Both the position numbers and the translations under genes were made by a program. From Lytechinus pictus (Eukaryota): a stretch of 64,000 bases of DNA. The stretch is taken from contig NC_087252.1 of assembly GCF_037042905.1 (NCBI RefSeq), positions 4,466,001-4,530,000 on the forward strand. The letters run 5' to 3'. The notes under the pieces are model-generated. The model ran no database searches. It saw only the letters and a list, made by a program, of their open reading frames with translations, and was not told the origin of the DNA. The first letter of the stretch is position 1, and the number at the start of each line of letters is the position of its first letter. Of this stretch, positions 2,328 to 62,877 are shown piece after piece.

Positions 2328-2508
2328 GTGATAAATTCCGCCTAGTTTTGGCAACGACGTTGCGTGAGGATGGTCTCCCAGACGAAAGCGACTACGTGCC
2401 TTTGGACGAAGGGCAGCCGAGCCGCGCTGATAGCTTTGAATACGTGATGTATGGCAAGGTGTACAGGATAGAAGGGGATGAGAGTCTGACGGAAGCTGCT
2501 ACTAAATT
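2328..2508 (+). CDS. POLR2H: RNA polymerases I/II/III subunit RPABC3 (RPB8), penultimate coding exon; 5' exons lie outside the window
   Basis: ctcttAG acceptor at 2327 and GTAAGT donor at 2509. Encodes (G)[59 protein letters not shown](L), matching the RPB8 motif [19 protein letters not shown]. Confidence 0.97.
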
Positions 2509-3584
2509 GTAAGTTCATTTGCCAAAAATGTATCGTATCTCCTTTATTGTAATTTTACTGAAATAGAAACCAATCTACATTAAATGGAACAAATATAATA
2601 TAAAAATGAATTGTATGGGCATGGAGAAAATGTTAGATTTAAGAAAATCTCACAAAGAAGAGACTAATTTACAATTAAAAGATAAGTATCAAATTAATTA
2701 ATTGAAGGGTATGGAAAGAGAAATTTAGAACTAGAATAGGGTCATTAACTTTTCTGTCTCTCCTTAATAATATCTCCCAGCGCAATGCTGGCCCATGAAA
2801 TTAACATTTTAATCACAAATAAAGCTTTTTAAAGTAACCCCCCCCCCCTGCAAGGCCCCTTATTCTGTAATGTTGCAGGTACTTTTATGATAACCTCTCA
2901 AAAGTTTCTTTATGAACAGACCAACGTTCAGCTCATATATCTTTGCATTTGTGTAAGAGCAGCCCTCCCCCACCCCCTTTCTCCCTTCCCCGAGAGAACA
3001 AATAAATGAAAGATAGAATAAATAATTCAATCATTAGGTGAATGAATGAATAAATGAATAAATTTGTTAAAATGGTAGATAACTAATAATTACTGACAAA
3101 TTAATAGATAAATGAAAAAATAAGAATATAATGGGGTGTATACTTTATATTTCAAAAGCCTAATGAGTTGACATACACCTCCTGTACATCAAGTAAAAAA
3201 GAGAGAAGAAGAGAGAAAAAAACTTAGAATTTTGGCTTTCTTCCTGATCACTCCCATTCATACTTCAGCCATCCAACAAAATCTCCAGTCGCTTCCTTAC
3301 CGAACTTCATGAAGTAATTCAATTAAATCTCTTGAATTATTAAAAGAATGTTCTAGAAATTTATGTGAGAGAGGTTGTACTTATTTTACTGAAGCAGAGG
3401 GTTACTGCTACTATTATTTCAGTAGGAGAATTTCTGCAGAAAGCTTCTTACGAAGTCATATTTCGAAGAGCGGTCCTTTTCCCTCCATAATCAACATAAT
3501 CCTCAATGTACAGATAATATATATCTATGGCAAAAAGAAGCTGCTGAAAACTGCTTATCTAATAAAAGAGAGCCAATGGAGTAA

Positions 3585-3716
3585 ATTAGAAAGTCAAAAA
3601 GGGGGCCTAAGCTTTCGATCCTAGCAGAATCTTCGTCGGAGGCAAAAATGCCTTTTTGCCTCCGACGAAGATTCTGCTAGGATCGAAAGCTTAGGCCCCC
3701 TTTTTGACTTTCTAAT
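3585..3716. repeat. Perfect palindrome: 64-bp arms, 4-nt spacer; possible Penelope-like element terminus
   Basis: 3585-3648 is the exact reverse complement of 3653-3716; the spacer is TGCC. Confidence 0.9.
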
Positions 3717-6428
3717 ATATATCTATGTATATTTCAAACTTACTGTAAATTGATGAAGTAATAAGTAACAAACTCTGCATCCTTTATCAAACTTTCAGTA
3801 TTTTTTTTCTATTTCTATCTTCAATTTGATTGTGTAGAAAAACACACCTCTCTACATTAATGGTTTTGATTAGAAATCGACTTCCACGGCTAATAAGTTT
3901 AGTGCAGTATTTTCTACCCAAAAAAATACTTGGTAGTCGAGAGCAATAATGAATTTTATACAAAACCAGACCATTGATCAAATACAAAACTCTGAGAATA
4001 TTCACATGCCTGGGCAGGTGGATTGAGGGTAGGGGGTGGAACATAGATATTCGCACAGGTAGTTTCATTTTTGATTGTGTGAACAATTATCATCTGGTGC
4101 ATACCAGCTGTATGGTATGATAGGATAGGGTCGAATCTTGATCAAACACTGGACCGAGTCCCTTCGCAGCTGGCCATGTTGGTTTCAATGTGAGTCCAGC
4201 TGCATATGTGACTCATCAATATAATGATAATGATTGTTACACTTGAAAAGCTAAAAATCATGAATTTCATTGATTTAATTTCTAAAATATGAATTTCATC
4301 GATTCCATTGTAAAATATGAGGTATGAGGAGGAATTTATAGGCCCTCCCCCCAAAAAATGATAATAAATAATACTTATAATAATAAATTGATAAATCAAG
4401 AAATTATAATAACTAAAAATTAAAATAAAGAAATAAATACACATAAATAAATGAATGAATGAGTGAATGAATAAAATAAAATAAAAAGGGAACAAAATTG
4501 ATAAAGACATAAAGTTTAGACACTAATCAATCAAACAAACAAACGTGAAACACAAAAAAAATCGAAATGAGATCATTTTAAAAAATACAATGCATTCAAA
4601 AATTTTCCATGTACCAGTTTATATTATTAATGAAATATTAGAAATCACCGTCCAAGCTGTGATGAATGGCATTAATACCCATTTTCAAAATTATCGCATT
4701 AATTATTTAAAAAAAAGAATTTGACTATTTCTAAAACTTGACTGTTGAATTCATGTGTATGGCCTATCTGTCTCTAAAGCTTCAAGAGTCCAAAACCTTT
4801 GTTAAAGCCTGTATCAAATCATGTAGTTGAAAATGAACGTAATAGAGGAGATAAAGTGCATTTATCAAAGAAAAGAAATGTCAAAGATTTGTTGGGAAGT
4901 ACCCACCTGCGCTATTGCAAGCTCCTAAAAAAAATAATGGTTCTGGTTTTTGTTTCATATTTGCCATTTAACTCCAAAATTGTATTCCTTTTGTTGCGAT
5001 GGTACTGTGTGGGTTTCAGAGGCAGGGACAGATGCTTTGTGATATTAAATGCGAAATATTTTCAATTTTGGCCAACCTTCTTTGTTCCTGTGTTCTTTCA
5101 AGGTCATTACTATATATGTAGTTTAGCCGATGATAAGATAGTGGACAATTACAAGACCCTGGGGTCTGATGATAATAGACTACTGGTATTGGATTTCAGA
5201 GTCTCCTGAACTTTGTTCTATTCTCTAATTTTGGACTATATTTGGACTTATTATTGATGGTGTATGGTGCCAAATATCCTACCTACTTTGGCACAGGTAA
5301 TGCCTGAAAAGCCAACCAATATTTTACACATCAGCATACTTCACAGAAAGCTGTTATGTAGTCTTTAGTTATTTCATTCAGCCATTGCTTTGTTCATTGT
5401 CACTAGGTGTGACATAGGGTCTGAATTTAAAGACTGGTCAGTTCAGCAACCTTTGAGACTCACACCCTGTGTGTGTTGCTGATAAAGCATTCCATTGTAT
5501 GATGTAATGCTTACTAGGGGAATCCCCTTCTTGCAGTCTTGGTCACATGACCGAGATGGTGTTGCTCAATGGGAATAGGTACTGTACCAATACACGAGGA
5601 GCCTGCACAAATATGCACATTTGCATTATATGAAAATTCATTCACTTGTTCTTAGATGAGCCTCTAGACCTATTCTAGTCCATTCATGTCTCCATGCTAT
5701 AAAACTTTAAAATTAAAATTTTTTGGTTGTGTTTTGATTCAAGTATTACCTTTCTTACTCAGCTCATCCTTTTGCAATGACTGCATTTCCTATCAAACAA
5801 AAATCACTTTCCACATTTCAGATGTCAGTCCTTGATATTAAAAGTTTGAATATTATGGACTCTTGTCAAGTCAGGGGCCTCCCCTGCATGGATGAGCATG
5901 ATTTTGGAATGTGTAACATGATACCATTGTTACCATGGTATCTAGAATCAATACTAAATTCAATATGATTAAGTAAAGGCTTCAGGTTATTTTGGGGAAA
6001 GGAATATTGAAAAATCAATCGAATTTCTACATAGAAATAAGGTTCCCTGTTGCCATTTGTGATTCTGCCATTGAATGGTAACTGCCATCAAATCCTTAAT
6101 TTGATCGGCTGTTGAGCATCGTTACCATGGTAGATAAGAAGCCCTAATAATTACCATTGGATTCCACAGTTTCCATAATACCATGATGAAGCAGGCCCCT
6201 TCAGAATAGAAAAAATGTTACAAATTAAACAAATTTTTGTAAATGCTTGATACTCTAGAAACGTTTCGCGGCTGCATTTTGGTTTGTCATTCACATTTGT
6301 AATTCACGTTTGTGATTCTAGCTTTAAAAAATTGTTTGAACTTACCCTTACTTCTGATATATTTGTATACATTGTGAAATGTATTCATTCACACTATTGA
6401 TAAATGCAGTATGGATCCAGTTTACATC

Positions 6429-6508
6429 AGACTAATAAGACCAACAGGTGTTATTCTCATGTGTGAATGTACAAGTCTGTGAATACATCTGCTGGTTTTT
6501 ATCGGTCT
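6429..6508 (+). ncRNA. mir-2002: microRNA hairpin, miR-2002 (mature 3p arm 6480-6502, UGAAUACAUCUGCUGGUUUUUAU), intronic in POLR2H
   Basis: Mature sequence matches sea urchin miR-2002 as I recall it. The 5' arm ATAAGACCAACAGGTGTTATTCTCA pairs with it. Apical UGUG at 6460-6463 and CNNC (CATC) at 6520-6523. Confidence 0.88.
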
Positions 6509-9500
6509 TGGTGACAATTCATCAAATCCAACCTTTTGCCTTCTTAGAAAATGTTCCCTCTTGACTTTGTCTTAAATTTGTCCTAATTTGTACTAAATTG
6601 CCTTTTATATTGTCTCAAAATGTTTACTCTTTTTCTGTATTTTTAATCACATTTTTTGTATTGGACGATGATAATTTTTTTGTACTCTATTGTATTATTG
6701 AAACTTTGTTGTCAAGTACATGTAACACCCTCTTTGATCTTGCAGGAGAATATTTAGAACAGTTGAGTCTAAACTTATTGGAGGGTTTACTTGTAAGTTG
6801 TAGGCATATGAGATCAGGGGGCCCCTGGCTTTCACATTGTCTGCTGCTTTCATTTGCTCCTTTTTAAATACCATTTTTATGCATTCCCTGTGAATCTCAA
6901 TGTTGGAATTGAATTTAGGGACAAGCAATTTTCCGTTTACCAGTAAATCAAAATGATTTTTATTTGTTCTTTACTTACAAATGGAATTCACAGTGCTGAT
7001 AGAACAGAATTTCATTTTATATCAAGTTTTAAATGGAATTACAGGTTTCCAGAAATGGAAAAGATAATTTTTGATACAGAAATCACTGTCCATAACATTT
7101 GCACAAAAACTTTGAAGATTCGTTAAGATTGGAAAATGGGGCTTGCCTGTTTCATTAAGAAATTTACAATCTTGATAATTGTGCCATTATTAAACTACTT
7201 TAAAATTGAATTTGGTTGGCTGCACGGCCCTGTTAGTGTTACCATGGTAGTTTAAATGGCAAAATGTACAATTACAACAAATCATACTTTCTTTACAAAA
7301 AAAAAATAGGCCACAGAATCTATTGAAAAATTGGTCCTGTAAGTAAAATTTTAAAAATAAAAATTATTATGAATTACCATATCTTTCCAACCAGTTTTTT
7401 TTTTCAAGTCTGAATTTCTCCATTTCTTGAAAATCCTTTGTCCAAATTTCTGAACGTATTCTATGTACATGTACCTGCTAGTGGACATCTCTTTGTAGAA
7501 ACTAGTTCCAAGTTTATCTCTTGCAGAACATCCATTCAATCTCTCTAATTCATTAAATTCTTCATTATTCATGATCACTATTCTTTCTCTCTTTGTCTCT
7601 TCTTGTATTCTTACACATAGGGGTTGATTTAAAGGTAATAAATTCATCTAACTTGTCATTTAACCTTGATCCCCTATTTCCTGTTGTCAGCCAAATCCCC
7701 ACCTTGACTGAGCTGAGATGCCCCTGATATCACTACTCACAGCACCTTTTCTATTACCATTGGGGTCATGGGGTCAGGAGAACTCCACTTTGACGTCATC
7801 ATATTTTCCCAAAAAAAATAAGATATAGGCCTACATAACATAATACTCTACAGCCCATTCAGAGATACATGTAATACCAAGTGATATTATGAATTACAAA
7901 AATTGAAATACATTAATGATAATAAAATGAAGAATTTGAAGGAAAAAAATTGGTTTATACATGTATGCTGATGCATAAGAAGTCTAATTTGTAAAAGTCT
8001 TGTTCAAAAGCTGAACTGGATATTCCTATTAATGCATTCTAATTAAAATCAAAATTAATCCTAAATGAAACAAATGCACCTAAAATTGTTAAATTTAAAA
8101 TTTTCAGAAGTTGTTTTGTATGCTCCATTGTAATTTCGAACTCTTATCAAAATTGGACAGGAGCAGCCACCTAATTAAAGACATAAAGCCAGCTAATTCA
8201 TATAAAATTGAACTGCATTTATCATGAAGTAATTCAAATTTTATTTCAGGGGCGATATTTTTTACTATCTCCCTCTGAGACCTTTGGCTGTATCAAGGAG
8301 AATATATTTCCTGCTGCTCTGCTTCCTTATTACAGCAGAATGGGAGGGACAGATAAGGATATATTATCACACATATTACACTTCAAGCACAGCTGGTGTT
8401 CTATTTCATGCAGTTTAGGGGGAAATAGCCCTTTGTTTCTTCGCCAAGATTTTCTCCTTTTCCCCCAAGTTTATTGTATGAAATCTTGGCTTGCTATCTC
8501 CCATGAACATTTCCTCTTTGTTTATTTCCCAAATTTGTCTTTTCTCTATGTAATTTGTTCGACTTTGACCCCCTCCCGCCCCCCATCATAATAATTTTTC
8601 TTGTCACCCTTTATCTCTCTCCCAAGATTATTTTGTTTTCTTTTTGAGAAAGCAATAAACTATTCATTACCCCCTCCAAGTGTTCCATCTCTTTGTCTTT
8701 TGACTACCCCCCCCCCTCCTTCAAGGTTTCTTCTCCCCTATTTTTTCCTTTCATTTGGAGGGGGGTCTCATTTCATATTTTCCTGTGTGATTCATATCCG
8801 TTTATCTCCTAACTTTTTTTTTGATATCATAAGTTTTTAATCATTGCTTGCAACCAAGAATAAAAAAAGGACATCAATGTAGGCCCTGTTTATACACAAA
8901 GACACAAAATTAATTGCTCCTGACAATAATACAATAATCAAACGTAACTCCTGAATGCTCGCTTCCCATTGGTCGAAAATCAAGTTGCGTTTAATCACAA
9001 TCTTTCTGCAAATGACCCATGGTTTTTCCTCTTTGTCTGCCCTGCATCCTTCCGATATGGTGCCTCAAGTTGGAGATCAACGACCTTCCCATCAGTAGGG
9101 TATTCTAACAGACCTCTACCATTCTGAATTTGAAGGAGAGAATATGAATTTCTACCATGCAGAACTCATGTTATAATAGGGTTTTCATAGTTTTCATAAT
9201 TTACATGCACTCCTATGGGAAATGCAATGCCTGTCTAATTTTGGAGCAAAATCATTCTCATTTCCCAATTGGCAGGGTTGGGAGGTCAGTTCTAACTATC
9301 ATACAATGCTCAATCTCAAGCTTAGAACAATTTTCCATCTTCTGGACTAATTGATTAAGTAATTAATTGATTAATTTCGAGATTCAAAGTAAACTCCATG
9401 CTCATTAGTTTAACTCTGGGTACTTTAATTTGAGCATGGGATGTGACATTATTAACAGCTAAATGATGCACCCACGAGTTGTTCAAAAGTTAATGCAAAA

Positions 9501-9890
9501 GTTCTTTCCCCACGATGCCCCCCCCCCCCCTTCCTCCTCCGGAGTGAGAAATGATTGTAATTCACTATGTTTCGGGTATTAATTCATTCCTAAATCAGGT
9601 AAACCACTGAGTGCATGGACCCTAAACATTTTTTTATAAATACGATGCATCAGTTTGTTGAAGTGCCAATGCATAGAGCAACGAATCAACAATGGGAGGA
9701 AAGGTGCCAATTATTAAAATCATATTTACCCTCAATATAGAACAAAAGGAGGCCCTCTATTGTTAGTTTGATTTTGATTAATCCCGTATCCTTGATAATC
9801 AATCCCCTTGTCATATTTCCCCCCTTGAAATTATCTGTTCTAAATCAGGAAACAGCTTCTGCCAAATTACAGCCTTTCCCTCAGAGCTCT

Positions 9891-10474
9891 TTAAAGGGAT
9901 GGTCCAGGCTAAAAATATTTATATCTTAATACATAAAGTAGAATTCACTGAGCAAAAATGCCGAAAATTTCATTCAAATCAGGTAACAAATAATAAAGTT
10001 ATTGAAGTTTAAAGTTCAACAATATTTTGTGAAAACAGTCGTCATGAATATTCATTAGGTGGGCTGATGATGTCACATCTCCACTTTCCGTTTTCTAATG
10101 TTATTGCATAAAATCATAATTTTTTCATTATTTCATACTTGTGTGAATAATATGTCTCCCTTATAATGAAATAAGTTGCAGCAATGAATATCTAATGCAC
10201 TAAATCAGTTGTCAATGCAATTTTTCTAGTTCTTGGAGGAAAAAATTTGAAAAAACCTAATTTCATGTAATAAAATACAAAAGAACAAGTGGGAATGTGA
10301 CATCATCAGTCCACCTAATGAATATTCATGACGACTGTTTTCACAAAATATTGCTAAACTTTAAAATTCAATAAATTTGTTATCCGATTTTGATGAAATT
10401 TTCGGCATTTTGCTCAGTGAATTCTACTCTATTTATTAAGCTATAAATACTTTCAGCCCGGATCATCCCTTTAA
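9891..10474. mobile_element. Kolobok/T2-like fold-back MITE
   Basis: TTAA-AGGGATGGTCC ... GGATCATCCCT-TTAA, with about 190-bp imperfect inverted arms. Confidence 0.8.
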
Positions 10475-11863
10475 AACCAACCAAACACTGCAATATGAAT
10501 TTATTATATATGATAAAATGATAAGCATTATGTTTCAAATACCATTCTGTAGCTATGTTAATAGATAAAGCAGTTGGTTGCTTTTTTGCTTTCAACTTTC
10601 AATCACATAACATGCCTTGTTAACCTGATAAAATGCTTGTCATCAAGACCTTTGTTCAATTATCTTGACTGTCAAATTTGTGATTAAAAAAATTCTTGCA
10701 CGTGCTTGATCTGTGCAAAGAGCAAACAATGGCCTACCATATTATAGACCCACCTCCCACGTTATGATTGAGGCTCATTAAAAAAATGGCAAGATTGGGC
10801 TTTCGCTAGCCATTAGTTTTTATATCAAAGTATTATACATCACACTAATTTTTTTTTTTTAAGATGTGTTTCTTCATACCAGTGTATAGGCCTAGATTTT
10901 TTTTATTGTAGAAAAAAGTTATTTAAAGTTATTTCAATTTGAAAATGAAGATTAAGTGTATCACACAGTTAACTTGAATGAAATACATTAAAAGAGGCAA
11001 AATATGATTTTGCTTGATTTTCCAATATGATTCGAATAATTACCAAAGCTGACAAGATGCATTTTTGTGGGCATTCCGCTTGATTTCTTCCTTCAAAGAT
11101 ATAATTATAAGTCTCCCCATTCTGTATTAAAATTCTTTCTTCGATCAAGCGATAAAAATTCTATTCTCTTTTGCTGCAGTGTGATTCCTTCCTCTTCCTC
11201 TTTTTAGTTCTGTTTTCATTTTTTGTCCTCTGAGTAAATTTACCTTTGCAATGTAATTCCTCTTTCATATCTCATTTTCAGTCATTCTTCGTCATGACAT
11301 CCATACTATTTCCCCATTCAAATCATGACTATGATATTAATGAATCTATCCAAATTGGTCTGTATGTAAAGACTAACATGGAAGGCCGTTAGTTTGGAGG
11401 CAAGTAACTACATGTACAAGTTTTGTTGTATGCACAGAACACATGGACCTTATGACTAATGTATTGTGATTGCTCTATAAAAGGGTGCTTTCAAAGATCA
11501 AGATTTCATTCATAACTTTGGCCAGCGAGTGGGAGCCAGGCTTTCGGATACACATGAAGCATGACTTTACATTATATTTTCTCTCTTCTGCTCTGAATAT
11601 TTTGGAAACAACCAGGCAGCCTCGAACTGCAATGAGCATTGTTCTTTATTTTTATTTTTCTTTGGTGTTTTTTTTTTATTTTTATATTGAACGGTCTGCT
11701 TTGATATTTTCAAAGTCTCGTATTGACTCCTTTCCTGTCTTCCCAGTGCATTATATTGAATTTTTTTATTTTTCTAATGAATCTCGATTAAACAAAGCCA
11801 CAAGTAACTGCAAGTAATCGCCACTGAGCCGAGCCTGCAGCAGAAGAAACGAGGTGTTTGATT

Positions 11864-11947
11864 GGCTGCCTTCCTTCGGCAGTGTAGTTAGCTGGTTGTT
11901 TTCCACCAATCATCAACCAGCTTGCTGCAGGGCCCCAGGAAGGAGTC
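11864..11947 (+). ncRNA. mir-34: microRNA hairpin, miR-34 (mature 5p arm 11877-11898, CGGCAGUGUAGUUAGCUGGUUG), intronic in POLR2H
   Basis: miR-34 seed GGCAGUG plus the conserved UUAGCUGGUUG 3' half. Star arm CAACCAGCTTGCTGCAGGGCC; lower stem CCTTCCT/AGGAAGG; basal UG at 11863-11864 (-14) and CATC at 11955-11958. Confidence 0.95.
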
Positions 11948-14900
11948 TTGAAATCATCAGAGGGTCAACATCAAGGAGCAGGTCTTCTTCATCTGTGCAA
12001 GTTTGAACCAGGGAGTCATTCATTGGTTCCTGTTTGAACCACCAATGCTTTTACATTAAACCTACAGCATTTTGTGCGAGGGCATACATCTACAAGCAGA
12101 AACTAATGTGATGTTCTTGCATACACGTATAGTCCTTTAAGATTCTGGGAATTATCAGTAGCTGGCGCTATGTCAGGATAGCAGTGGAAATGTTCTCATG
12201 GAGAAAATCTAAAAATATGGCTGTCCACATTGTGAATACTATTTGCTTTTCTTTTATCTACGCAACACACAACATGTAGGCCTACTGTTCATTTAGGCCT
12301 ACAATGTATGTCTACCTGAATTTTTTTTATGAAGGATTTTTTCTTCACCTGTTTTTTTTTTTTGCTTTGTACTGTTCATACTGATATATATAAACGCTCA
12401 GTGTACAAATTCAAAGCAAATTACTCACTGACTCGACACAGATGCTGTATTTTTCTTTGTCTGATCAGAAAATTATTCCAGAGACACCCTAGAGTGTTGT
12501 ATCCTTCCAGCGAGGTTCCATTTCTTTATTCATGTCTGTTAATTAGACACTTGAGAAGGATATGTTGTAGTGTAGAGGAGATTTGCAATCCTGCATAATA
12601 GGCATGAAATATCAGTTCCTCTTGAAAGTATTTCCATGGTTCAGTCAATCCATTTGTTCTTTATTCATTTTATTAGAGTAGACGTGTCTCAACATGTCAT
12701 TGATACATTGGATTTGGGTTGTGTTGTTAGTAGATAGTCTGCAAGCGCAGACTCAAACGTGACGCTTTAACAAATTATACAATGTCTGCAGTTAAGACTA
12801 GACTCTTAACTGTGCCAAAGCAGCCTCAGTACATAGTGACTCTAGTCTAACTACTTCAGACCCTGCATTATGCACTAAGTGTAAACCAAAGGTCTGTGCC
12901 TGCAGTCTAGTAGGTAGGGGCTATGATATGTTTTGTTTGTTTTGTTTGTTTGGTTTTTTTTGGGGGGGTAAGATGATGATAATATACAATTTGCCGTCTA
13001 CATGCCCACTAGATGCAGAGGATGTTCCAGAGGTGATTGTGTCAGTGACAGACAAAGCTAGTCAAGACTCAACTCAATGATTTGGAAATTTATTAGGGTC
13101 TGCAAATGCAAAAACTCTGCCTATTGTCTTTTTACCCTGTTTCTGTTTCATTCCATCTCTCTTTATTTCTCTTTTTCGCTTTGATCACTTGAAAATATTT
13201 GGGGACAACCCCTCCCCTTTTAACCCTCGTCTATGAAATCTATAGAACTTCATAATTCCTCACCATCATTCCTAGGTTCTATTGAACTTTGAAGTGACTC
13301 ACTCTTATACAGAATGCACTACTGTGAGCATATAAGTAAATACACTGATGATGCATATAAGTTCTAAATTTTCATCATCATGGAAACTGTCCATCTTAAG
13401 ATAAATTGTCATCATTTCTGTTGATGATTCATGTTATTTGCCACATGATTATTTGTACGTGACTATTTCGATCATGCTCAATATATTGAAATGATGACAT
13501 TATTAGACTTAATATAAGATGTGGCATTTGAGGAAAATGATGGGGAGTTTCTAAAATGATACAACCATATACATGAAGGGGAAAGTGATTATTCTTCGAC
13601 TTTGTGTTTAAATAATTACAAAGAAATATGTTTGCACTGTGCAGTTGGGAATAAATCAGATTTTATTAAATGGATCGGAAATGAATAAAAAAATTGATAA
13701 GATTTATTACTGGTGCGAACAGGTCAGAAATAGCTAGTGTGAAAGTGTCTGCGTGAGGATGACTGGTAATGACATCATACACTGTAGATATAAACGAGGG
13801 ATGATTGTGACATCATCATTGAACTATGAAGCCTCGCAGAAGAGATGGGAGTAGTCTGTTTGGAAGAGGGGGGCATAAGATATCAAAATGTGACTGGTTG
13901 GTAATGGTTTGTGTGATTTGTATACTACCCATCCCCTTACCCTCAAATGTTCCTCCATCTCACTGCCCCCCCCCCCTTCTTCTCTCCCTCACTCTCCCCA
14001 ATCAACTCTCCCTCTTTCATTGATCTGCCACCACCCCCCCCCCCTTGCCCCCGCCCCCTTTTCTGCATCTCTCCTCTTTCTCCCACTCTCTGTCTTCCAT
14101 TTTATAAATTTCTATTAACTGTCTATCATTCATCTATCCATATATCCCTTACATCTGTCTCTTTTATTTTTTTATGTTTTATGTGTCAGTTAATCTCTTA
14201 AAATCTGGCTTTTCATAATTATGTGTGAATGTTTGTGCATGTCCAATGACATATTTCAACCTATCCCACCCCTTTCTCCCGCATGCTATCTTATTTTAAA
14301 TCCTACATGAAAAGTATAATTCATATCATGTTATTATTATCATATTGATTGTTAGTTATCTCGGGCTTAGGGCCCAGTGGATTAATGAATCACAATTTAA
14401 TCATACAATAATTAGAATAAACAACAACTTTGCAATTAACACAGTACATCCAATTTGCACAAAAAACAGTTCATTTGTATGGAAGGTTTTATTTCTCTGT
14501 GCGTCTCTCCCATGCATACGAGAGATGAATCATGACCCTAATAATAGCTGATTACATCCCAGTCACTTTACTCTGATCTGCCAACAATGAAGAGTATTCA
14601 ATATCAAATGTCAAGAAGTCGCCCATCCAGACTTGAAATAGTAACGATTAGTCTTCATGTTGTCGTATCTACATGTATGCTGTAAATGACCAGCCCCTAA
14701 TGTTTCAAGATTGTTTTACTCTAATGACAGTGAAAACCATAAGTTACATCCAGGGGTGGATCCAGGATTTTCCAATGGGGAGGGGCACATTTGTGGTTTG
14801 GTATTTTTTCAGTTAATATTTTTAGGTTATTTGATGTTAATAATGTTTTTTAAACTCATACTGATCTTCACCTAATTTTTCTATCATTTTAGCAAAAAAA

Positions 14901-17563
14901 CGTTTCTCTTGTGATAGAGGTGATGTGAGGATGGTTTATAAAAGTGGGGGGATGTTGTACCTGCAGCACATGATTGTAGTGTGATGTTAGAGAGAAAAGT
15001 AGGTAGCTATAAAATAAGGAGGATCTAGGCCTAATTGTAGATAAATATAATGATAGAGGAAGAATAAGGAGAGAATGAAATTAAAGGCGAACTGCAAAGT
15101 GTGCTGGTCTTGCGGGAGATAGAATATATCAGTAGAAAGAGCGAGAGAGAGAGAGAAAGATCGACGGAGGTCATTCTTTATGACATTGGGTTTTGGTGTC
15201 TCACTATTTCCTTCATTGGACTGTGACCCCCCCCCCCTTCCCCCCCCCCCCCCCGCCAATCCCACTGCATGGTCTGTTTCAACCAACTCGTTCTCGCTTT
15301 CATTCATCAGGTTTCATCCACCCACTTCCTATCTAGTTTACAGGATACAATCTTGTCCTTGGCGTCTATCTTCGTCTTATAAAGCAAGGCCCCACACTAA
15401 CACCGGGCCACTGCTAATGTCAAGCCTTGCATAAAGCATTCATGTGAACCTCAACCTGAGACAATTCCCCCCCCCCCTCCTCTAAATGAAAAAAAAACCT
15501 AATGACTTGTATCATGGAATTATCTCAGATATAATAACTCGGTGCTTATTTGCCTACCGGTATCCATTGCTATTTCCCATTATCTCATTCTCTCCTTGGT
15601 TTGTTTTGTTTATTTGTTTTGTTCTCTTTTTTTGTCTTTTGTATAAACTTCCACCATACGTCTTAAGTTATGACAATCTGTCTTTAGATGGTTATCATTC
15701 CCCTCTCCCAATGGCCTTACTACACCTGCACCCCTCTCTTCCAGTTTAATCCTCACCCCTTTCCCGATCATTCCCCTCCTTGCTCCAGCCTGTGCCCCCT
15801 TCTCAGAAACATTTATTACCCGTATGAATATCTTCCACTTGCCCCTTGTACCAACTCCTGTATCATGCCTTTACCCCCACTTCACCCCCAAAGAATCCTT
15901 ATAATGCTGTTTGTATTCTCCTGTTCTCTCATTGTCATCTTTTTATTTGTCCTCATTGCAACTTCATTTTTATGTCGAAATATGGGATTATAACCCTTGC
16001 TCCATTTGTGTGTATGGCTTAACGACTTCCACCATCACAGCCTCCTTCAAGCTTTATAATTCTTCATCCTATTTATATTTTCATCTTAACTTAAGGTCTT
16101 TTACTGATCGGATGTGCCTCTGTCATGTTGAGTCATACATTATAATAGTGATGAATCTGTGTGTGAGTGAGTTGGAGTCCATGGCACAGAGGCTAAATTA
16201 GGAGAGAAATAATTTGTAGAAGGTGGCATGCATTAGTCACCGAAGATGACTGGGTCTGCATCACTCCAAATCATCTATTTGCTCCAACGATGACTTTAGG
16301 ATGAGATGTGGATAGATAGGGAGGAGGAAGAAGAGACAGGATGATATCTTATCCATTGGGATGGGGTGGTGGTGGATTAAAACGGGGGTATTACTAATTA
16401 TTGGACAGTTTGAATGATACAGACTGCATCATTCAATGAGATCAGGATGAATAGGTTGTAAAGGGGGAGGGGTGGTCAACATCTCATCCCATATTATGGT
16501 GGATTAATTGGATACTAGTAGTCCAGTATGATACTGCTTGCATCAATTCAAATCATCTTTTATTCTGCTCCAGCTATGACTTGGGGACATGTTTGTTAAG
16601 TCGGGAATAAATTCATGTAATATGGTATATTGTTTAGGGGTTATATGGCACTTTAGGATGAGATGGACGGCATGGTGGATTCATGTAGGCCTACCAAAAT
16701 TATTAATACATACATGTAAGTGACATTTGGATGAATCATGAAAAGGGGAGAATATAGTTAAATCAGCATGAAAAGTAACTTTAGTTTGTACATTGTTTCT
16801 CTCCGACTTGAGAGTTGAGACCGAGTCACAGTACTGCCTCTTTTTACCAAAGAAATGATTCAAGCCTATTCTCACATGACCCTATTTGACCTCAAAATCG
16901 GGGTTCTGCTCTTTTTCAGAAGCAGAAGTTATTGATTTCCAAGAATTCTTTGAACTTTAACCCTGTGCCAGTATATGAGGCACCTTTTCAAGTTGAAGTG
17001 AATAGCAAAGGGGGCAGATTCATAAAGCATATTTGGGGCTTACTACATATTTTGTTTGTATATTTATGTTATATGTTTCTTACAAGCTACAAGCATTTAA
17101 TCATTTGAATGCGCAACAACAATAACAAAACAAAAATAACTCTTAGGATGGTTCATATTCAGGCTAAAATTGGACCTGTGTCCATTAAACCCATTAGCAG
17201 ATTAGGGCCTATGTGGTCTAATCAGGGTATTGTATGTGTAGGTCATTATGTTCTGAAAGTTGATTTATTTTACAATTTTTTGTTAAAAAAGGAAATGATA
17301 TACATTCATGCATTTTATATCATATTCCAGAACGGTTTAGATAGTTATTTGGTGATTACATGTCGATAAAGCTGAAGTCATATCTTTTTTAACAGTATTA
17401 GTTATTGGCACTTTGACACTCCTCCAAGCTCTCTCATTCTTTCTTTTTCTTGTGCGCCTCGGAATAGAATATTCCTAGTGGATGGTGAGGTATAAATGCC
17501 TACTATTAAATGCCTATTATTATTAATCATTTTCTCTTCTCTCTCTCTGTCTCCGTTCTACAG

Positions 17564-17681
17564 GTCTGCCTACATGTCCTATGGAGGTCTCTTGATGAGG
17601 TTACAGGGCGATGCTAATAACTTACATGGCGTAGAACTCAACCAGCAAGTCTACCTTCTCATAAAGAAACTAGCCTTCTAA
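17564..17681 (+). CDS. POLR2H: RPB8 final coding exon
   Basis: Pyrimidine tract plus ctacAG at 17563. Phase joins the previous exon (TT|G = Leu). Encodes [38 protein letters not shown], the conserved RPB8 C-terminus. Confidence 0.97.
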
Positions 17682-19140
17682 GGGGTTACATTTCAAGACT
17701 ACTACTTGACGAGGTGTATGGAAGTTTGATGAAGACCCTTTGGTTTGGTGTTAAAAGGGTGTAATTTGATCTTTACATCAATATAGGCAAACTGATTTGT
17801 TCATACTACACCAAAACCAACACTGAACTTGAAATCACTTGGTGTATCTTGAAGTTTGGGAGGGGTTAATAAAACGAAGGGTGTAATTTGAGGGGTTGAC
17901 CCATGAAAAGAAAGAATAATCAACACTTTCCACAGAGATTTCTATATCTCATTAGCTTAAAATTTGGTAAAGGTTTTATAGTTTTACAATTCTATCCTAT
18001 TTTAACAGAACACAGATCCCAATTACTTTCCAAATGTACTGGAATAATTATGTTATTTTGATAATGATGTAAGGATTTAAAGATGTGTGGGGGGGGGGGG
18101 CTTTCCCCTTCTGAAAAGTAGTAAGCAGCCAATGAAAGTTAATTGAAAAAAATATGAATGAAAACAAAGGAAAACCACATGAGTCAATACCCTTAAAGAT
18201 TTTACCTTAATGTAAAAATTATATATGTAAGGACAAATGGCCAAGGATTAGGTTTCAATAAGTTTTTAATATATTACTCATTCTTTGTTGAGAATTTAAA
18301 TTCTATTTTTGTAAACTGTGTTGCATGTCGGCCCATGAATATAAAATGAAAACAGAATTTGAAACTGAACATTGTCCAGACGTGTTACCTGTAATATATT
18401 GACACCTACAAAAGTAAGTGTTGTTTCAGACGAAAAATGTAATGACAGGGGGTCTGGAGTTAAAGACTAGGGAATTACTTGTTTGTGTGTTGTAATGGTT
18501 CAAATACCTCATTTTTCTCCAAAATAATAGAGAAAATATGATAATAGAATACCTGACGCCCTGGAACAAAAAAGGTCTGGTCATGGGAATGTATCACTGA
18601 TGGAGAATATTCAATGAATCCCTCTTTTAATTTCAAAACTATTTCCCACCAAATTAATGTTTGTACAAACTTGTGTTTGGCTGTTTGCATACCAGAAATG
18701 AATATCTGATATAGTTAATGCATTTAAGAATATCAGGGAATTTGATCTCCAATGTCATGTTGTGATAATCATTGCATTTTCCAGCAGCAGATCTTAATCT
18801 TTTTTGGAAATAATTAGTTTTGGTGTGAAATATTTAGAAAATAAAATAGTACCATTTCATGTTTGGTTCAAATCATCTTTCATTTTGTTCATAGTCAGTG
18901 TACATCATGAGAAAAATTATGTGGTATTTGATATAAATAAACATAATAGAAATAAACATGTGCATGTAGTCCACTACTGTCAACAAAGTTTCTTCTGATT
19001 TTCCCCCAAATTGTACTCTCCTGAAACCTTTTGTTGATCATTTACAATTACATGAACCATGGAAATAAGTGTCAACTGATTGATTACTGATCTTGTATAT
19101 AATTATTTGTATATATATTATGTATTAAAAATGGACACAT

Positions 19141-20480
19141 GTGTTGTCCTAATGTTTCCTTTTTTAAATAAAAATTATTGAGAAAATACAATATTGGTTT
19201 TTTTGTTTAGTGATATTAAAGTTTAAGAAAAATAGATGAATGGAATGGGATGGTGATGATGATGATGATGATGATGATAATTTTGGTGGTGGTGATGATG
19301 ATGATGATTTTGGTGGTGATGATGATGATGATGATTTTGGTGGTGGTGAAGATGATGATGATGATGCTAATTTTGGTGGTGGTGATGATGATGATGATTT
19401 TGGTGGTGGTGATGATGATTATGATGATGGTGATGGTGATGATGTTAATAGTTATAATGATGGTGATGATTATGATGATGATTTTGATGGTGATGATGAT
19501 TATGATGATGGTGATGGTGATGATGTTAATAGTTATAATGATGGTGATGATTATGATGACGAAATGATTTAGGGGGGCTGGTATAAAGATGATGAATGGT
19601 GATGATGCTCATGAGGGCGATAATCACAGTGATTAGAGATAAAGTTGGAGGTACTTAGATGATGATAGTGGTAGTAATGACTTGACTGATTGTGATAATG
19701 GTAGATATCATTATTCTGATGATGGACACAGTGTGAATGCCAATTAGGGTAGTGATGAAATGATTGTTTGGGCTGTTGGTGTGTTGTCCGAATGTTTCCT
19801 TTTTTGAATAAAAATTATTGAGAAAATACAATATTGTTATTTTTTGTTAAGTGATATTAAAGTTTAAGAAAAATAGATGAATGGGATGATGATGATTTTT
19901 GTGGTGGTGGTGGTGGTGCTGATGATGATGATGGTGATAGTGATAGTGATGATGTTAATAGTTATAATGATGAGGATGATGATGATTTTGGTGGTGGTGG
20001 TGACGGTGGTGGTGGTGGTGGTGATGATGATGGTGATGATGTTAATAGTTGTAATGATGGTGATGATTACGATGATGAAATGATTTGGGGGGGGCTGGTA
20101 TAAAGATGATGAATGGTGATTATGCTCATGAGGGCGACAATCACAGTGATTAGAGATAAATGTGCAGGTACTTCGATGATAATGGTGGTAGTAATGACTT
20201 GACTGATTGTGATAATGGTAGATATCATTATTCTGATGACAGTGTGAATGCCAATTAGGGTAGTGATGAAATGATTGCTTGGGCTGTTGGTGGCATTGAT
20301 TATGATGGTGATGATGATGATGATGATGATGATAATGATGATGATGATGATAATGAAATGATCTTTTGGGGCTGGTATAAAGATGGTGTATGGTGATGAT
20401 GTTCTTGAGGGCAACAACCACAATGATGATTCTCATGTTAGAGATAAATATGATGATGATAAATAATGATGATAGTGATA
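19141..20480. repeat. Tandem duplication (unit starts at 19141 and 19781) with (GAT)n/(GGT)n microsatellites
   Basis: GTGTTGTCC..AATGTTTCCTTTTTT.AATAAAAATTATTGAGAAAATAC is present at both 19141 and 19781, each followed by GAT/GGT arrays and the same unique spacer. Confidence 0.85.
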
Positions 20481-26654: not shown

Positions 26655-27583
26655 CTGCAATGATACAACCAATAACATTATCATTCAAGTATGAAAGTTT
26701 CTGGAAATGAAAAATCAATTTCAGTATCACTGTAGTCCGAACATTTCGCATCACATATTATATGGCATGGATGTCAAACAAATTTTAGAAATGATCTAAT
26801 AATAAATCTAGATCATTTCGAAAATCTGTTTGACATCCATGCCATATAAAATCTAAATGATTTAATAGAAAGTTTATTCCCAACACTTTGTTTATGATGT
26901 TGCTTTACATTTTTGATAAAGAAAGGTATTAATAATCTTGAAAGTATGGTAGGAAAAGCAGTATATGATTTAATATGCATAAACTCCTAGAATATCTTAT
27001 CACTTTCAAGAACCACAGGCAGGCAAAAATTAAACAATAAAATACACCTCAGGCATGTGTTTCATAAAGCTGTTTGTACATAATACGAGCGAATTTACAA
27101 AGAAATGGTGGTCCTTCCTTGTGCCCTAAATCGCTATCAATGAAAATCATACAAATCATTTTCCGAAGTCACTTGTAAATTACCAATGAAAGGATTGTGG
27201 GTAGTTCCACGCATAAAAAAAATCATTTTTGATCGACAATAAACATATCCTATCACTCATTTCTTACATGTACCTTTGATTTTGACATTCTATTTTGCCT
27301 ACCAAGGTTTGGAAAATTAATACAATTAAGAATCATGTGAACAGACAATCATCTGTCACAATATTAAGAAGTTAACTTTAGAACAATTATGCATAGACAA
27401 GACAGATCAGAAAAAATAATGCATGAATTAAAGAATAATGTTATTTGCAATGTGTGTGTGTGTGTTTTTTTTTTTGGCTGATATAAGGTGTGTTACTCTT
27501 CCCGGCCCAATAATGGCATGTATATCTTGAAGAGAAAAAAATTAAAAGTTTGTTTAAGTGATGTCACGAAGGAGAAAACTTAC

Positions 27584-43263: not shown

Positions 43264-43915
43264 TAGTATTAATACCTCCTTTTCACTCCTTGCCAGCAGT
43301 TCCCAAGCATGTATGTTTTTCACCCCTTTTTTACGACCATACCGTTCTCTCTCGGTCCTTAGGTTAGCCCCTCATTTCAGGCTTTGGTTCAAGAAGATCA
43401 CCATTCCATATTAAATTCCAGTTCCTGAACACCCATGTTTGCAGAGGGCCATCAAGTTCTTAAGCCCCTTATTTCATAGCATTTTCATTTCTAGGGGTTA
43501 GGTTTCAGATTTTGGGGCTGCACACCCCTACCCTCTCCAAATCCGAGTGCTCCCCCCCCCCCCTTTGATTTCTAAAATCCGAATTATTTTGGCTGATTAC
43601 AGTGAAACTTGCCTTTGTGACTTCTTGTAGGTTTTCAGCTTGATCGATGCTCATTGACTTTCATTCTAACCTTGGGTTTGATTTGATCTCTGGTATACAA
43701 TCATGGTTAACTATGGATAGCCAATTGTGACACAAATATCTAACAGTTCAATTTACTAGTATCAGCTTGTTTTACACTCAAATCATTCAAAAATATGTAT
43801 CGAAATGACAACTGAAATATTTTTTTCAGCATTAGAATAACCTTTAATGGTTTGTCACCTGATGGAAAATTGGAAATTCAACTTAAGCATTTCACTAATT
43901 TCATTCTTTTGATAG

Positions 43916-44024
43916 TGCTCGTGTATCGCTTCAACCAAACACAATCTTTACCAGATGTAGAACAAGAAGAATTCAATGCCTCAATTACACAGCCATCAGC
44001 TACAGTACCTGATATTGGATATAG
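43916..44024 (+). CDS. TMEM192: TMEM192 exon 5
   Basis: gatAG ... GTAAGA; (V)LVYRFNQTQSLPDVEQEEFNASITQPSATVPDIGY (FN...PDV motif). Confidence 0.9.
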
Positions 44025-45798
44025 GTAAGAAACTCTCTCTCTTTCTCTCTCTTTCCTTTTCTCTCTCTTTCCATCTCTATATCTGTGTCTCTCTCCCATC
44101 TTTCTAACTCTCCATTACCTCTCTTCTTCTCTCCATCTTATCTGTCACCTCCCTCTCTATTTTTTTCCTCCCCCCTCCCTATCCCTCTTTCTCTCTTTCT
44201 CCTCCCTTATTACACAATATACTTGGAGCTCCCTTGTAAATGTCCTTTACACCTGTATTGGATTAAAATGATCAGCATTCTTTACATATTTGATTTGATA
44301 TCTTATTTTGATTTATACTGTTTTGTAACACCCCTCTACCTACCAAGGCAGCCATTTTTTTTTTTTTTGGGGGGGTGGTTCTTCTTCTTTATTTCCATCA
44401 TGTAAAACAACTCTTAACAATATATGAAATGCATGCAATAATATTCATATTCTTACAATAAATTACAAGTGAGCTTGCAGAATAATGTACAATGTCTTTC
44501 AATTAAATAAAGAAAGAATCGGTATAACATACCAATTATCTAAATTGAAAATGAAAAATAAGGCAACTGACAGTTTGCCAAGCATTGTTTCGTGAAACTT
44601 GTGATGAATGTCAAGAAATAGACACAAGCAATTGCAAAAATGAACAGAATACAAAATCATATGCATTTTCACTTTTTTATTTTGACCAAGGAGGTTTCAA
44701 ATGAGATGGAGTAACAGCAAATAAAATCTCTTTGAACAAGGTTAAAAGCCACCAGCAGAAAGTATGTCAGGCATGCACTTTGCTCAACATCTCTTGCAAT
44801 TGTGTAGACAAATGATTCCCGCATGACTCCTCAGCTATAAGTCATACATAAAGGGAAATATGCTTCTGTGATGATAATTACTTTTTCGCCGCATCTTGGT
44901 CTGGTTATATGTGTAGTACATAATTCGGAGGCATGCGAAAATATGCAATATGTCCTGAAATATGACTCAAATTTGCTCGACTGGGCATGTGCGGGCACTC
45001 ATCTGGCATATACAGTAATGAACAACAATATTCCACCGACCACATTTGAAATTTTTATTCGCCGCAAACAATCGGAAAGTGTTAAAATCTGGTTTCAGTA
45101 AAGGTCAAATTCTTTCTTTTTTCACTAATTAAAGGTTAATTGATAAAGTCTTGGCAAATATCTCGTCGTAACAGTGCTTGGTTATTGATGTTTTGTCATG
45201 CATTCACATTTCAGTTTGTTTATTAATATGAAAGATGGAAAATTGATACAAATGGATATTCGTAAAATTTCACCCCTCGGATTTCTTCACTGAAACTGGC
45301 GGCTTCGAAGGCGGACATCAAAAGGTCCTTATTGCCGTTCTTTCTTTTTTGCTTCTTTAGAAATGAACAGCTGGTTTGAATAAATTTGTTGCCTGTTGGA
45401 ACTCCAGTCATAGAATCTTCTTGTTTTGACTGATCATTATTTTACTTAATCATCACTTCATTGGCACATTTGCTGAGACAAATGCAAGTCAGGAAAATTT
45501 GAAAATAGATTTTTTTTTGCCAGCTAAGTTGACTGATTTTAGTATCTTTTCACACTTTTTACACTGATGCTTTTTGCACTTACCTTGTATGTGATGGACA
45601 ATAAAACAGAGCCTTGCCTTTACTTATGTTTAATCATAATTTATCTCTCATAATCACAGTCATCCACCACATCAGGTATGGAGACCTACTATTTAATTCT
45701 TCAAATAACATCAAATGATGTTAATTTTTGGTAAAACTGTTTCCTCCTCCTTCTCTCACTCCCTCTCATTCTTTCATTTCTTTTTCTCTCTTTTTCAG

Positions 45799-54909: not shown

Positions 54910-55566
54910 CTGCAAAATAAAATTCAAAAGTTGTATTGCCACACGTGCCTATAATCATGCCTATAATCCAAGCTAGATGGTGGGGGGAGGGGTAGTCTGC
55001 TGTGCAAACCCTTCACTCGAGTAAAGGGTCTGAATTGCAGCCTACTCATGCGTTGTGTACTGAAGGCCCTCCTGAATTGAAACAGCAAGTTTTGTATGTG
55101 CTAGTCTTTGTGTGGAGACACACTCGTTGATCAAAGTTTCAATCAGGGTCTGGGCCTGCAGACTAGTGGGGGGGGGGTCAGATGCAGGAAAATTTGATGC
55201 AGGATTTTAAATCAGCATCAGAAATATACTACGAGGGCGACTTTGCCCTCATGACAGCCAAAATTGCCCTAAAATTCTCATAATGGAATGCTTAAGGCAA
55301 ACATCTTTCCTTAAGTCCCCCAAGATTAGTCACAAACTATATAGACCTTATGCCCATGACGTCATATTCTCAGTGTCGTCCCTTAGAGGATATAGGAATA
55401 TGTGTAAATGGAGTTATCAGTGATGCAGCAGCAGCAAATCACCAATGCATGCAGGGAAATTGCATCAGCTTCTGAGATGGCAGCGTGATGTGAATGCATA
55501 AGGTCTATATTCAAGATTAAATGTTTCCTCAATAACCCAGAAGCAACATACCAGGATCATGCAAAT

Positions 55567-57222: not shown

Positions 57223-57461
57223 TTGGACTCGGTGAAATGCAACAAACAACTGTTTTGCACGTTATAGTCTGAAAACATGCTTCTTGTGGAAGGTCTAAAG
57301 CGGCATCATGTCAAAAAAGAGGGGACGGGTCATCATGTGCCCCTTTGCCCCCTGGACTGGATCCGTGCCTGTTTAAGAAAACCGAATAAGTGAAAACCTT
57401 GCGCACTGCAGTGCTAATGGTTTAGCAATGACCCCCCATCGCAGTAACATGTAACCCTCAC

Positions 57462-57974
57462 CTGTCTTCTAAGCTCTTCAGCTACCACACCTGGGTTGAC
57501 CTCTGGCACATGACCCTTGACCCCATCAGCCATTATGACATGACCTTTGACATCTCCACCACCATTGTAATGGCTGTAAGGTATATCTTCCTGTGGATCA
57601 ACTCTGAGGTTTGTCGAGTCAGTCTCAGGGTGAAGACCCTGAAGGTCACCCATGTCTTCTTGGTCCCCGTGTCCATGGTAATGACCTTCGACCCTTGAAC
57701 TTTGCTGAGGTGACCTCTGAAGTCTGGGGGCAAAGGTCACATGCTTGGACTTTGCAACCTCTCCTGCTTCTCTGATCTGGTGGTGTGGGTCACTCCCACT
57801 GCTCTCATCATAGAGTCCTTCTTCTATGGCGTCATGGACAAGTCTTTTATCGCTCTCAGTGGTTGCAGTCGTCTCAAGGTCAGCGACCCAAGATGTAGAA
57901 TCCGTTGGATTGCCATCAGCTTCCTTCAAATAGGATGTTTCCCATATACCACCTGGAACAGTATGATGATCAAT
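57462..57974 (-). CDS. CCDC15: CCDC15 exon 4
   Basis: ttgcAG ... GTGAGG; 513 nt open, phase 0/0; IDHHTVPGGIW...PGVVAEELRRQ. Confidence 0.85.
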
Positions 57975-58964
57975 CTGCAATATAATGAAAGCCAAAAAGA
58001 AGAAAATTGAGAAATGGGATACAACTGACTTTCTCACGTGAACTGTATTAGTAAAAGATTGAACACCAAGAACTGATTCTCTATTTCATTAAAAAATGTA
58101 ACTTTACCAGCACAAACTATGTGAAGAATTGCCATTGACAAAAATCTTATTTCAAGCAATACCTACATGTACATGGCTTTTCTAAAAGGTCGACTTTGTA
58201 CATGCAATTCTTGTTACCTTTGCAAACACCCGAGGACCGTATTACAAATGTTTTCAGCACTAACTGAATTGTCAGATCTGACAATTTCAGAGATATCCTT
58301 TGACTGACTGAGAATCACTGGTCATCTACTGTTAACAAGTATGGTAGCAAGTCAGAGAATGGCAGCTTGTCTATATTGACAACTTTCACTGCACTGCCAA
58401 GGGCTCTGTCATCCACAATAATCAATGGAATCAATAAGGAAATCAGGTGGGTGTTTCAAAAAGCTGTTTGTAAGTTAAGAGCGACTCTAAGAACGACTGG
58501 AGATCCTTTCTTTTGGCGATCCTTTCTTCTGGTACGCACCATTGGCGATTGTTTAGCGAGTAAGAAAGGATCACCTGTCGTTCTTAAAGTTGCTCTTAAC
58601 TTACGAACAGCTTTATGAAACGGCCCCCTGCTCCATGATCAATTGTTTTTTCTTATGTTACGGGGCCCGTTTAATAAAGCTGTTTTGTAAGAGCGACTTT
58701 AAAAAGGACTGGCAAACCTTTGCTAAACCATAGCCAATTAACATTTACCACAAGAAAGGATCACTAGTCGTTCCTAAGTTACAAACAGCTTAATGAAACA
58801 CCGACCTGGTTTGAATGCATGTGGAAATATAGAGTATGCGAGTATTGACCACTTCTATTGAATCAAAATATTCTTCATACTGTACTTGTCATACCTTAAC
58901 AATAATAGCGCATATCACTGCCAAATGCGTCCCTTTTGAAGGAAACAGTATGAGCATTTTTTAC

Positions 58965-62759: not shown

Positions 62760-62877
62760 TACCTCAGGCGATGTTCGTGCAGGCTCCACTCCACTTCACT
62801 ACCGCTACACTACGCTCCACCTACTAGTGTAGCGGTAGTGAAGTGGAGTGGAGCCTGCACGGACATCGCCTGAGGTA
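62760..62877. repeat. 118-bp near-perfect palindrome (TA-flanked mini-MITE) in CCDC15 intron 1
   Basis: 53-bp arms with one mismatch, a 12-nt spacer and TA at both ends. Confidence 0.85.

Follow-up and report, generated by a model that had tools for sequence, protein, structure and literature searches.

miR-34 is a much-studied microRNA of ageing and tumour suppression, and RPB8 (POLR2H) is a subunit common to all three nuclear RNA polymerases. In the 64,000-nt stretch of Lytechinus pictus DNA analysed here (contig NC_087252.1, positions 4,466,001 to 4,530,000; hereafter, the window), the last coding intron of RPB8 carries hairpins for miR-34 and for a second microRNA, miR-2002. The closest described system is the honeybee, where GB10191, the Rpb8 orthologue, carries mir-317, -277 and -34 together in its intron 3 (PMC2394756), in agreement with a first-pass annotation of the window. 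Bee and urchin thus share the host gene and the placing of miR-34 with its partner or partners in a single intron; intron 3 would also be the last coding intron provided that the bee gene has four coding exons, as does the RPB8 gene of one contig in our survey (L018). The window differs from the bee in being deuterostome, in lacking miR-277 and in having miR-2002 as the upstream partner. The accessible parts of the honeybee paper make no claim on deep ancestry.

The wider protostome mir-317/277/34 cluster (PMC4238352; RF00720, RF00730, RF00456) resembles the window in its order, 317-(277)-34, in its single strand, in the 3p mature product of miR-317 and the 5p product of miR-34, and in its variable spacing. 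Its published history makes miR-34 old, with miR-317 and miR-277 born later and the cluster grown de novo (PMC4238352). Table S3 of that paper has 317 and 277 "born in Deterosome radiation", an ambiguous wording with no deuterostome gene named, and the text and tables searched give no host gene. In the matrix of PMC3840308 (columns counted by hand), 317 and 277 are absent in all deuterostomes, and there is no column for 2002. Sequences of miR-317 and miR-277 are given in PMC9170749. Echinoderm miR-2002, which we read as miR-317, has been published as eleutherozoan-specific (PMC11076791, after Wheeler 2009).

In the two main model systems, fly and vertebrates, the link to RPB8 has apparently been lost. 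POLR2H is on 3q27. Vertebrate miR-34a, miR-34b/c and miR-449a/b/c belong to the same seed family as the mature miR-34 of the window, and the human miR-34a, miR-34b/c and miR-449 loci, unlike the urchin one, map to 1p36.22, to 11q23.1 and to CDC20B intron 2 (PMC8281345). The first-pass statement that vertebrate miR-34 genes lie outside POLR2H agrees with these positions. In Drosophila, miR-317 and miR-277/34 have two separate non-coding hosts and start sites (PMC11482908). A comparable bond between microRNA and host intron, that of miR-1/133 with Mib1, is kept from urchin to distant bilaterians and, unlike the RPB8 link, in mammals as well (PMC11076791). In searches of PMC open-access papers and bioRxiv, miR-34, miR-317 and Rpb8 were linked only in the honeybee paper, and no paper joined miR-2002 with miR-317; the curators of MirGeneDB may know of the host link.

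We consider it probable that the cluster already lay in the RPB8 intron of the protostome-deuterostome ancestor, that miR-2002 is miR-317 carrying an altered seed, and that Microprocessor crops both hairpins from RPB8 pre-mRNA. Four parts of this picture are demonstrated: the intron, the hairpins, the identity of their mature arms with published urchin microRNAs and the shared intron position.

Two microRNA hairpins in the last RPB8 intron

The gene and hairpins occupy the following positions in the window:

2328..2508, + strand: penultimate coding exon of RPB8/POLR2H, residues 53-113, ending in phase 2 inside Leu113
2509..17563, + strand: last coding intron of RPB8, 15,055 nt, GT-AG, phase 2
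6435..6502, + strand: miR-2002 hairpin, Rfam RF03821 at 101.6 bits; mature 3p arm 6480-6502
11870..11942, + strand: miR-34 hairpin, Rfam RF00456 at 53.5 bits (cut-off 53.4); mature 5p arm 11877-11898
17564..17681, + strand: last coding exon of RPB8 to the stop codon, SAY...KKLAF; the 3' untranslated region follows

The penultimate exon closes with ...ACT AAA TT before gtaagt, and the intron closes with ...ctacag before G TCT, splitting the junction codon TTG (Leu113) in phase 2; the stop codon is at 17679-17681. Both exons match Pfam RNA_pol_Rpb8 (50.1 and 45.6 bits against a cut-off of 25). The spliced frame is continuous over 98 aa, and all 98 are identical to residues 54-151 of the 151-aa Lytechinus variegatus RPABC3, junction included. 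In a quick tree (60 rows, many forks open, weak support), the window protein groups with Lytechinus inside the echinoid clade. The housekeeping gene of about 150 aa with a 15,055-nt last coding intron that the first pass described is therefore confirmed by the GT-AG phase-2 junction, the Pfam matches and the identity of the frame. The window opens within the gene, and exons encoding residues 1-52 were not found in its 64 kb, so the stated length is that of the L. variegatus relative.

At the gathering threshold, Rfam finds exactly two RNAs in the 64 kb, mir-2002 and mir-34, both on the sense strand inside this intron and 5.4 kb apart. Over the Rfam spans, the fold z-score is -3.2 for miR-2002 (2 of 200 shuffles folded as well) and -6.7 for miR-34 (0 of 200). 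Both mature arms agree letter for letter with the spu-miR-34 and spu-miR-2002-3p of PMC6039759, where the same mature sequences are expressed in the tube feet of a related urchin, S. intermedius. The 5p arm of miR-34 carries the GGCAGUG seed on a stable hairpin and, with the Rfam gathering score, places the locus in MIR-34; the RF03821 gathering score and the mature-arm identity place the other hairpin in MIR-2002. Rfam, folding and mature arms thus agree with the two sense-strand hairpins noticed initially. The Microprocessor motifs reported with them, judged against consensus positions, are present in full for miR-34, with a basal UG at -14/-13 (11863-11864), an apical UGU and a CNNC at +18 (11955-11958). 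They are present in part for miR-2002, which has an apical UGUG and a CNNC at +18 and lacks the basal UG.

Thirteen sense-strand 90-nt segments passed a loose single-stem filter, and none except miR-2002 had a convincing Rfam family; the filter is insensitive and missed the miR-34 stem. No 6mer or 7mer seed site of miR-34 or miR-2002 occurs in 17682-19200, and there is therefore no sign of direct feedback on RPB8.

The intron location across animals

To compare this arrangement with other animals, metagenome contigs were scanned for the mature miR-34 motif, giving 39 loci (L001 and so on), in which RPB8 exons were called by tblastn and a profile of 76 full-length homologues. RPB8 exons are present in 16 of the 39. 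In every one of these 16, miR-34 is on the sense strand, after the penultimate exon, before the last exon, or both, and all fit the intron of the window. Eight contigs contain both flanking exons (L003, L005, L006, L010, L018, L023, L029, L031), two the donor side only (L016, L035) and six the acceptor side only (L011, L015, L025, L028, L032, L036). A comparison of 707 window frames with the 39 contigs found no common neighbour gene except RPB8, and viral contigs gave no matches to miR-34.

The first-pass annotation had proposed that the RPB8 location predates the split between protostomes and deuterostomes, and the splice junctions uphold it: all eight two-exon contigs have a GT-AG phase-2 intron immediately ahead of the codon equivalent to the SAY serine. 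L003, L016, L018 and L029 are 96-99% identical to one another, and the eight contigs represent six distinct lineages because L003, L018 and L029 are near-identical (96-98%). In the quick tree, L031 sits at zero distance from Daphnia pulex with L005 beside it, the two grouping with Daphnia (96); L010, L023, L011, L025 and L036 are placed among pancrustaceans. A clade of L006, L018 and L035 falls outside pancrustaceans and deuterostomes, with lophotrochozoans as its best named matches (a tentative label), and L015, L028 and L032 sit near annelids, judged on 38 residues only. The RPB8 of L023 is strongly diverged (49-56% identity), yet its intron and both microRNAs are kept.

Database proteins point to the same junction. 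RPB8 isoforms of mammals and snakes diverge directly after the same R-L codon pair, and the Lingula and Plakobranchus models stop there, so the intron itself appears to be kept widely. Several database models (P0016, P0003, P0007, P0060 and others) end or switch frame exactly at the junction, which suggests that this microRNA-bearing intron often breaks gene prediction or permits alternative last exons.

Because an echinoderm, crustaceans, an insect and probable lophotrochozoans have gene, intron, phase and strand in common, a single origin is by far the simplest explanation, and we hold with high confidence that the RPB8-intron location of miR-34 is ancestral to protostomes and deuterostomes. 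Some observations weigh against it. The deuterostome sample is one locus, the window. Twenty-three of the 39 contigs have no RPB8 exon; most are too short, and only L014 extends further downstream (10 kb) than the 5,685 nt between miR-34 and the acceptor in the window. In L014 (miR-34 at 9957-10029), 10 kb on each side hold no RPB8 exon, and in L012 (6220-6454), where miR-317 and miR-34 are 119 nt apart, there is none in the 6.2 kb upstream of miR-317. These two contigs may have longer introns, extra copies or relocated clusters. In six others (L001, L007, L008, L022, L030, L037), a perfect mature miR-34 lacks a short hairpin in an 87-nt fold, and the Rfam span for miR-34 in L022 is 123 nt; they may be long-loop miR-34 precursors.

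How the hairpins are expressed can be considered against this background. Cropping by Microprocessor while the intron is still spliced is established for intronic microRNAs. Here, Pol II would transcribe RPB8 through the intron, Drosha/DGCR8 would crop both hairpins without blocking splicing, and Dicer would yield miR-34-5p and miR-2002-3p. An alternative shares the ancestral history but has the microRNAs made mainly from one or more intronic promoters of their own, with RPB8 as a fixed neighbour and the extra intron length holding enhancers. The separate start sites of Drosophila miR-317 and miR-277/34 (PMC11482908) speak for such promoters and count against co-transcription; the 5.4 kb between the hairpins of the window speaks for them too. 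Expression points the same way: in urchin tube foot, miR-34 exceeds miR-2002-3p about 10-fold (PMC6039759), and in sea cucumber coelomocytes it falls short of miR-2002-3p (PMC4669494), the latter being weak evidence mapped to urchin sequences. A reversed ratio is hard to obtain from one housekeeping transcript without regulated processing. However, in L010 miR-317 and miR-34 are packed into a 428-nt intron, miR-317 beginning 119 nt past the donor and miR-34 following 129 nt later, which leaves little room for a promoter. Dependence on the host is favoured by this compact intron and by the strand, which is the same in all 16 contigs with RPB8 exons. We therefore regard mainly independent promoters as unlikely, if a serious contender, and judge from the sequence comparisons that both microRNAs are rather likely co-transcribed with RPB8.

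miR-2002 as a candidate orthologue of miR-317

Upstream of miR-34 and on the same strand, 14 of the 39 contigs carry miR-317, and in all eight two-exon contigs it lies inside the RPB8 intron. In the window, miR-2002 occupies precisely this slot: the last RPB8 intron, the same strand, before miR-34. The first-pass annotation was right that the second hairpin is real and did not notice its likeness to miR-317. Aligned without gaps from a common 5' end, miR-2002-3p (UGAAUACAUCUGCUGGUUUUUAU) and the miR-317 of the contigs (beginning UGAACACAGCUGGUGGUAUCU), both from the 3p arm, agree in 15 of 19 bases and in 16-17 of 23. The two therefore share both a 3p mature product and similarity in register.

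The likeness also emerges from a scan of the whole window. When contig-derived miR-317 was run along both strands of the 64 kb, the best match began exactly where miR-2002-3p does, at 6480; for one of the four miR-317 23-mers, a site without a hairpin scored equally well. The chance of such likeness at a single site is about 1e-6 to 2e-5. It rises to about 0.004-0.06 when 50 x 65 family pairs, a shared 5' U and five registers are allowed for (family counts from PMC11076791 and PMC5121899), with synteny left out of the calculation. Rfam RF00720 (mir-317) gives a single match in 15.3 kb, on the miR-2002 hairpin and strand. Of 14 miR-317 hairpins, 9 have a C-G pair at seed position 5, where miR-2002 has U-A, which is weak evidence since any microRNA pairs.

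Several results count against orthology. The seeds differ by one change at position 5, GAAUACA in miR-2002 and GAACACA in miR-317, and under the seed rule the two are therefore different families; Rfam 15 likewise holds mir-2002 and mir-317 apart, with no clan. The RF00720 match reaches only 18 bits where the cut-off is 56 (with all families counted, E is 0.05-4.3), although the true miR-317 of L002, L012 and L015 also falls below that cut-off, at 43-54 bits. A purpose-built miR-317 model, which rested on an erroneous structure of 9 pairs and on a mature arm without variation, did not include the miR-2002 hairpin among its 20 matches at E up to 10. Shuffles of the intron equalled the observed mismatch count in 5, 6, 9 and 36 of 300 trials, so that the sequence match carries only modest weight unless one counts the fact that it falls on a known microRNA; of 16 matches in the reverse scan, 2 are chance sites. 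Finally, a 5-mismatch miR-317-like site lies at 8384-8406, in sense and between the two microRNAs, without a hairpin. Because the formal family tests failed, we do not file miR-2002 under MIR-317; the claim is one of orthology.

The site at 8384-8406, with an 11-nt exact match to the miR-317 core, was considered as a second miR-317 and rejected for want of a microRNA-type hairpin; it may be a chance match or a decayed duplicate. The third-best miR-317 match in the window, 11883-11901, falls on mature miR-34, in its 3' part (13 of 19, sharing AGCUGGU, on the opposite arm), possibly a hint of very old duplication or, again, chance.

The competing explanation leaves miR-34 ancestral in the RPB8 intron and makes miR-2002 a new echinoderm hairpin whose likeness to miR-317 is accidental, miR-317 being protostome-specific. 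It accounts readily for the different seed and the weak model scores. It also accords with a cluster described as growing by de novo birth (PMC4238352), since novel hairpins often arise in existing microRNA transcripts, with the absence of miR-317 from every deuterostome row of the PMC3840308 matrix, and with the term eleutherozoan applied to miR-2002 in PMC11076791. It must, however, treat as coincidence an in-register identity of 15 of 19, with its low single-site probability, in a hairpin that agrees in arm, 5' end, strand, intron and order. We consider this explanation improbable and, on the combined sequence and positional evidence, strongly favour miR-2002 as the orthologue of miR-317 with a one-base seed change. 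The weakest alternative, separate entry of miR-34 into RPB8 in echinoderms and protostomes, takes what support it has from the single deuterostome sampled and from vertebrate and Drosophila clusters that are not described as RPB8-hosted, which shows the locus able to move, and is very hard to credit when gene, intron, phase and strand are all the same and a 317-like partner stands in the same order.

miR-277 behaves differently from its neighbours. A miR-277-type hairpin lies between miR-317 and miR-34 in 9 of the 14 miR-317 contigs and was not found by motif in the other five (L005, L010, L012, L023, L031). In the window intron there is no Rfam mir-277 match at E up to 10, and none stands between miR-2002 and miR-34. 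The top matches of a purpose-built miR-277 model are palindromes, with a weak match to the miR-2002 hairpin and no miR-277. A miR-277-like 12-mer at 6401-6412 was rejected: it does not fold into a hairpin (z 0.05 to 0.95), and its place upstream of miR-2002 is the wrong one.

Cluster history and intron size

The ancestral state would be an RPB8 intron with miR-317 followed by miR-34. Protostomes would then have gained miR-277 in the space between the two, or echinoderms would have lost it. Replacement of C by U at seed position 5 (GAACACA becoming GAAUACA) would have retargeted the echinoderm copy and masked its homology, and in vertebrates and Drosophila the microRNAs would have been retained while the host link was lost. 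On balance, we lean towards a broader statement: miR-317 is a bilaterian family of the last RPB8 intron, beside miR-34; chordates would have lost miR-317, and echinoderms would retain it, with a mutated seed, under the name miR-2002.

MicroRNA families serve as nearly irreversible characters in animal phylogeny and as a tally of regulatory innovation. If the broader statement is true, what had counted as a protostome novelty and an eleutherozoan novelty would be one ancient gene, whose seed changed and which chordates lost, and other microRNAs hidden behind new names could be recognised by their position in a host intron. miR-2002, if it is miR-317, would be an example from nature of an ancient microRNA in which a seed mutation became fixed, and the likely ancestral home of miR-34 is identified inside RPB8. 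Neither the identity of a bilaterian miR-317 with miR-2002 nor the use of host-intron position as an unmasking tool turned up in the searches of PMC open-access papers and bioRxiv.

It had also been suggested that the intron owes its size in part to the microRNAs; this does not hold. In the eight two-exon contigs, the homologous intron measures 428-4,842 nt with two or three microRNAs each (short contigs favour short introns), and since 428 nt accommodate two microRNAs we reject the explanation. The two in the window need about 200 nt of the 15 kb. At the other extreme, the 317/277/34 cluster is spread over about 23-25 kb in two ants, and in insects the length of the cluster goes with the size of the genome (PMC5121899). 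Intron length would thus track genome size and insertions and not the microRNAs. Two elements in the urchin intron stand out:

9890..10475, no strand assigned: miniature inverted-repeat transposable element (MITE)-like element, 586 nt, its two ends marked by long terminal inverted repeats and TTAA
3582..3719, no strand assigned: near-perfect palindrome, 138 nt, with 67-nt arms 99% identical and a 4-nt loop, outside the microRNA cluster

The MITE-like element is one contributor to intron length. It has partial copies near 51.1-51.6 kb and matches at 38.4 kb of the window, and its TTAA with AGG...CCT ends presumably points to Kolobok-type non-autonomous transposons. Further palindromic matches occur at 26759-26848 and 62777-62860, and the palindromes are possibly hairpin-type mobile elements. 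In all, 126 of the 15,055 intron nucleotides match the rest of the window, a within-window comparison that does not measure repeat content.

Elsewhere in the window, 105 frames were scanned against Pfam. An exon-like frame at 57417-58085 (- strand) had no Pfam match. Below the cut-off, we observed a TMEM192-like exon at 43816-44025 (+ strand, E 7.6e-5) and a weak PIGA match at 55386-55556 (- strand, E 0.004).

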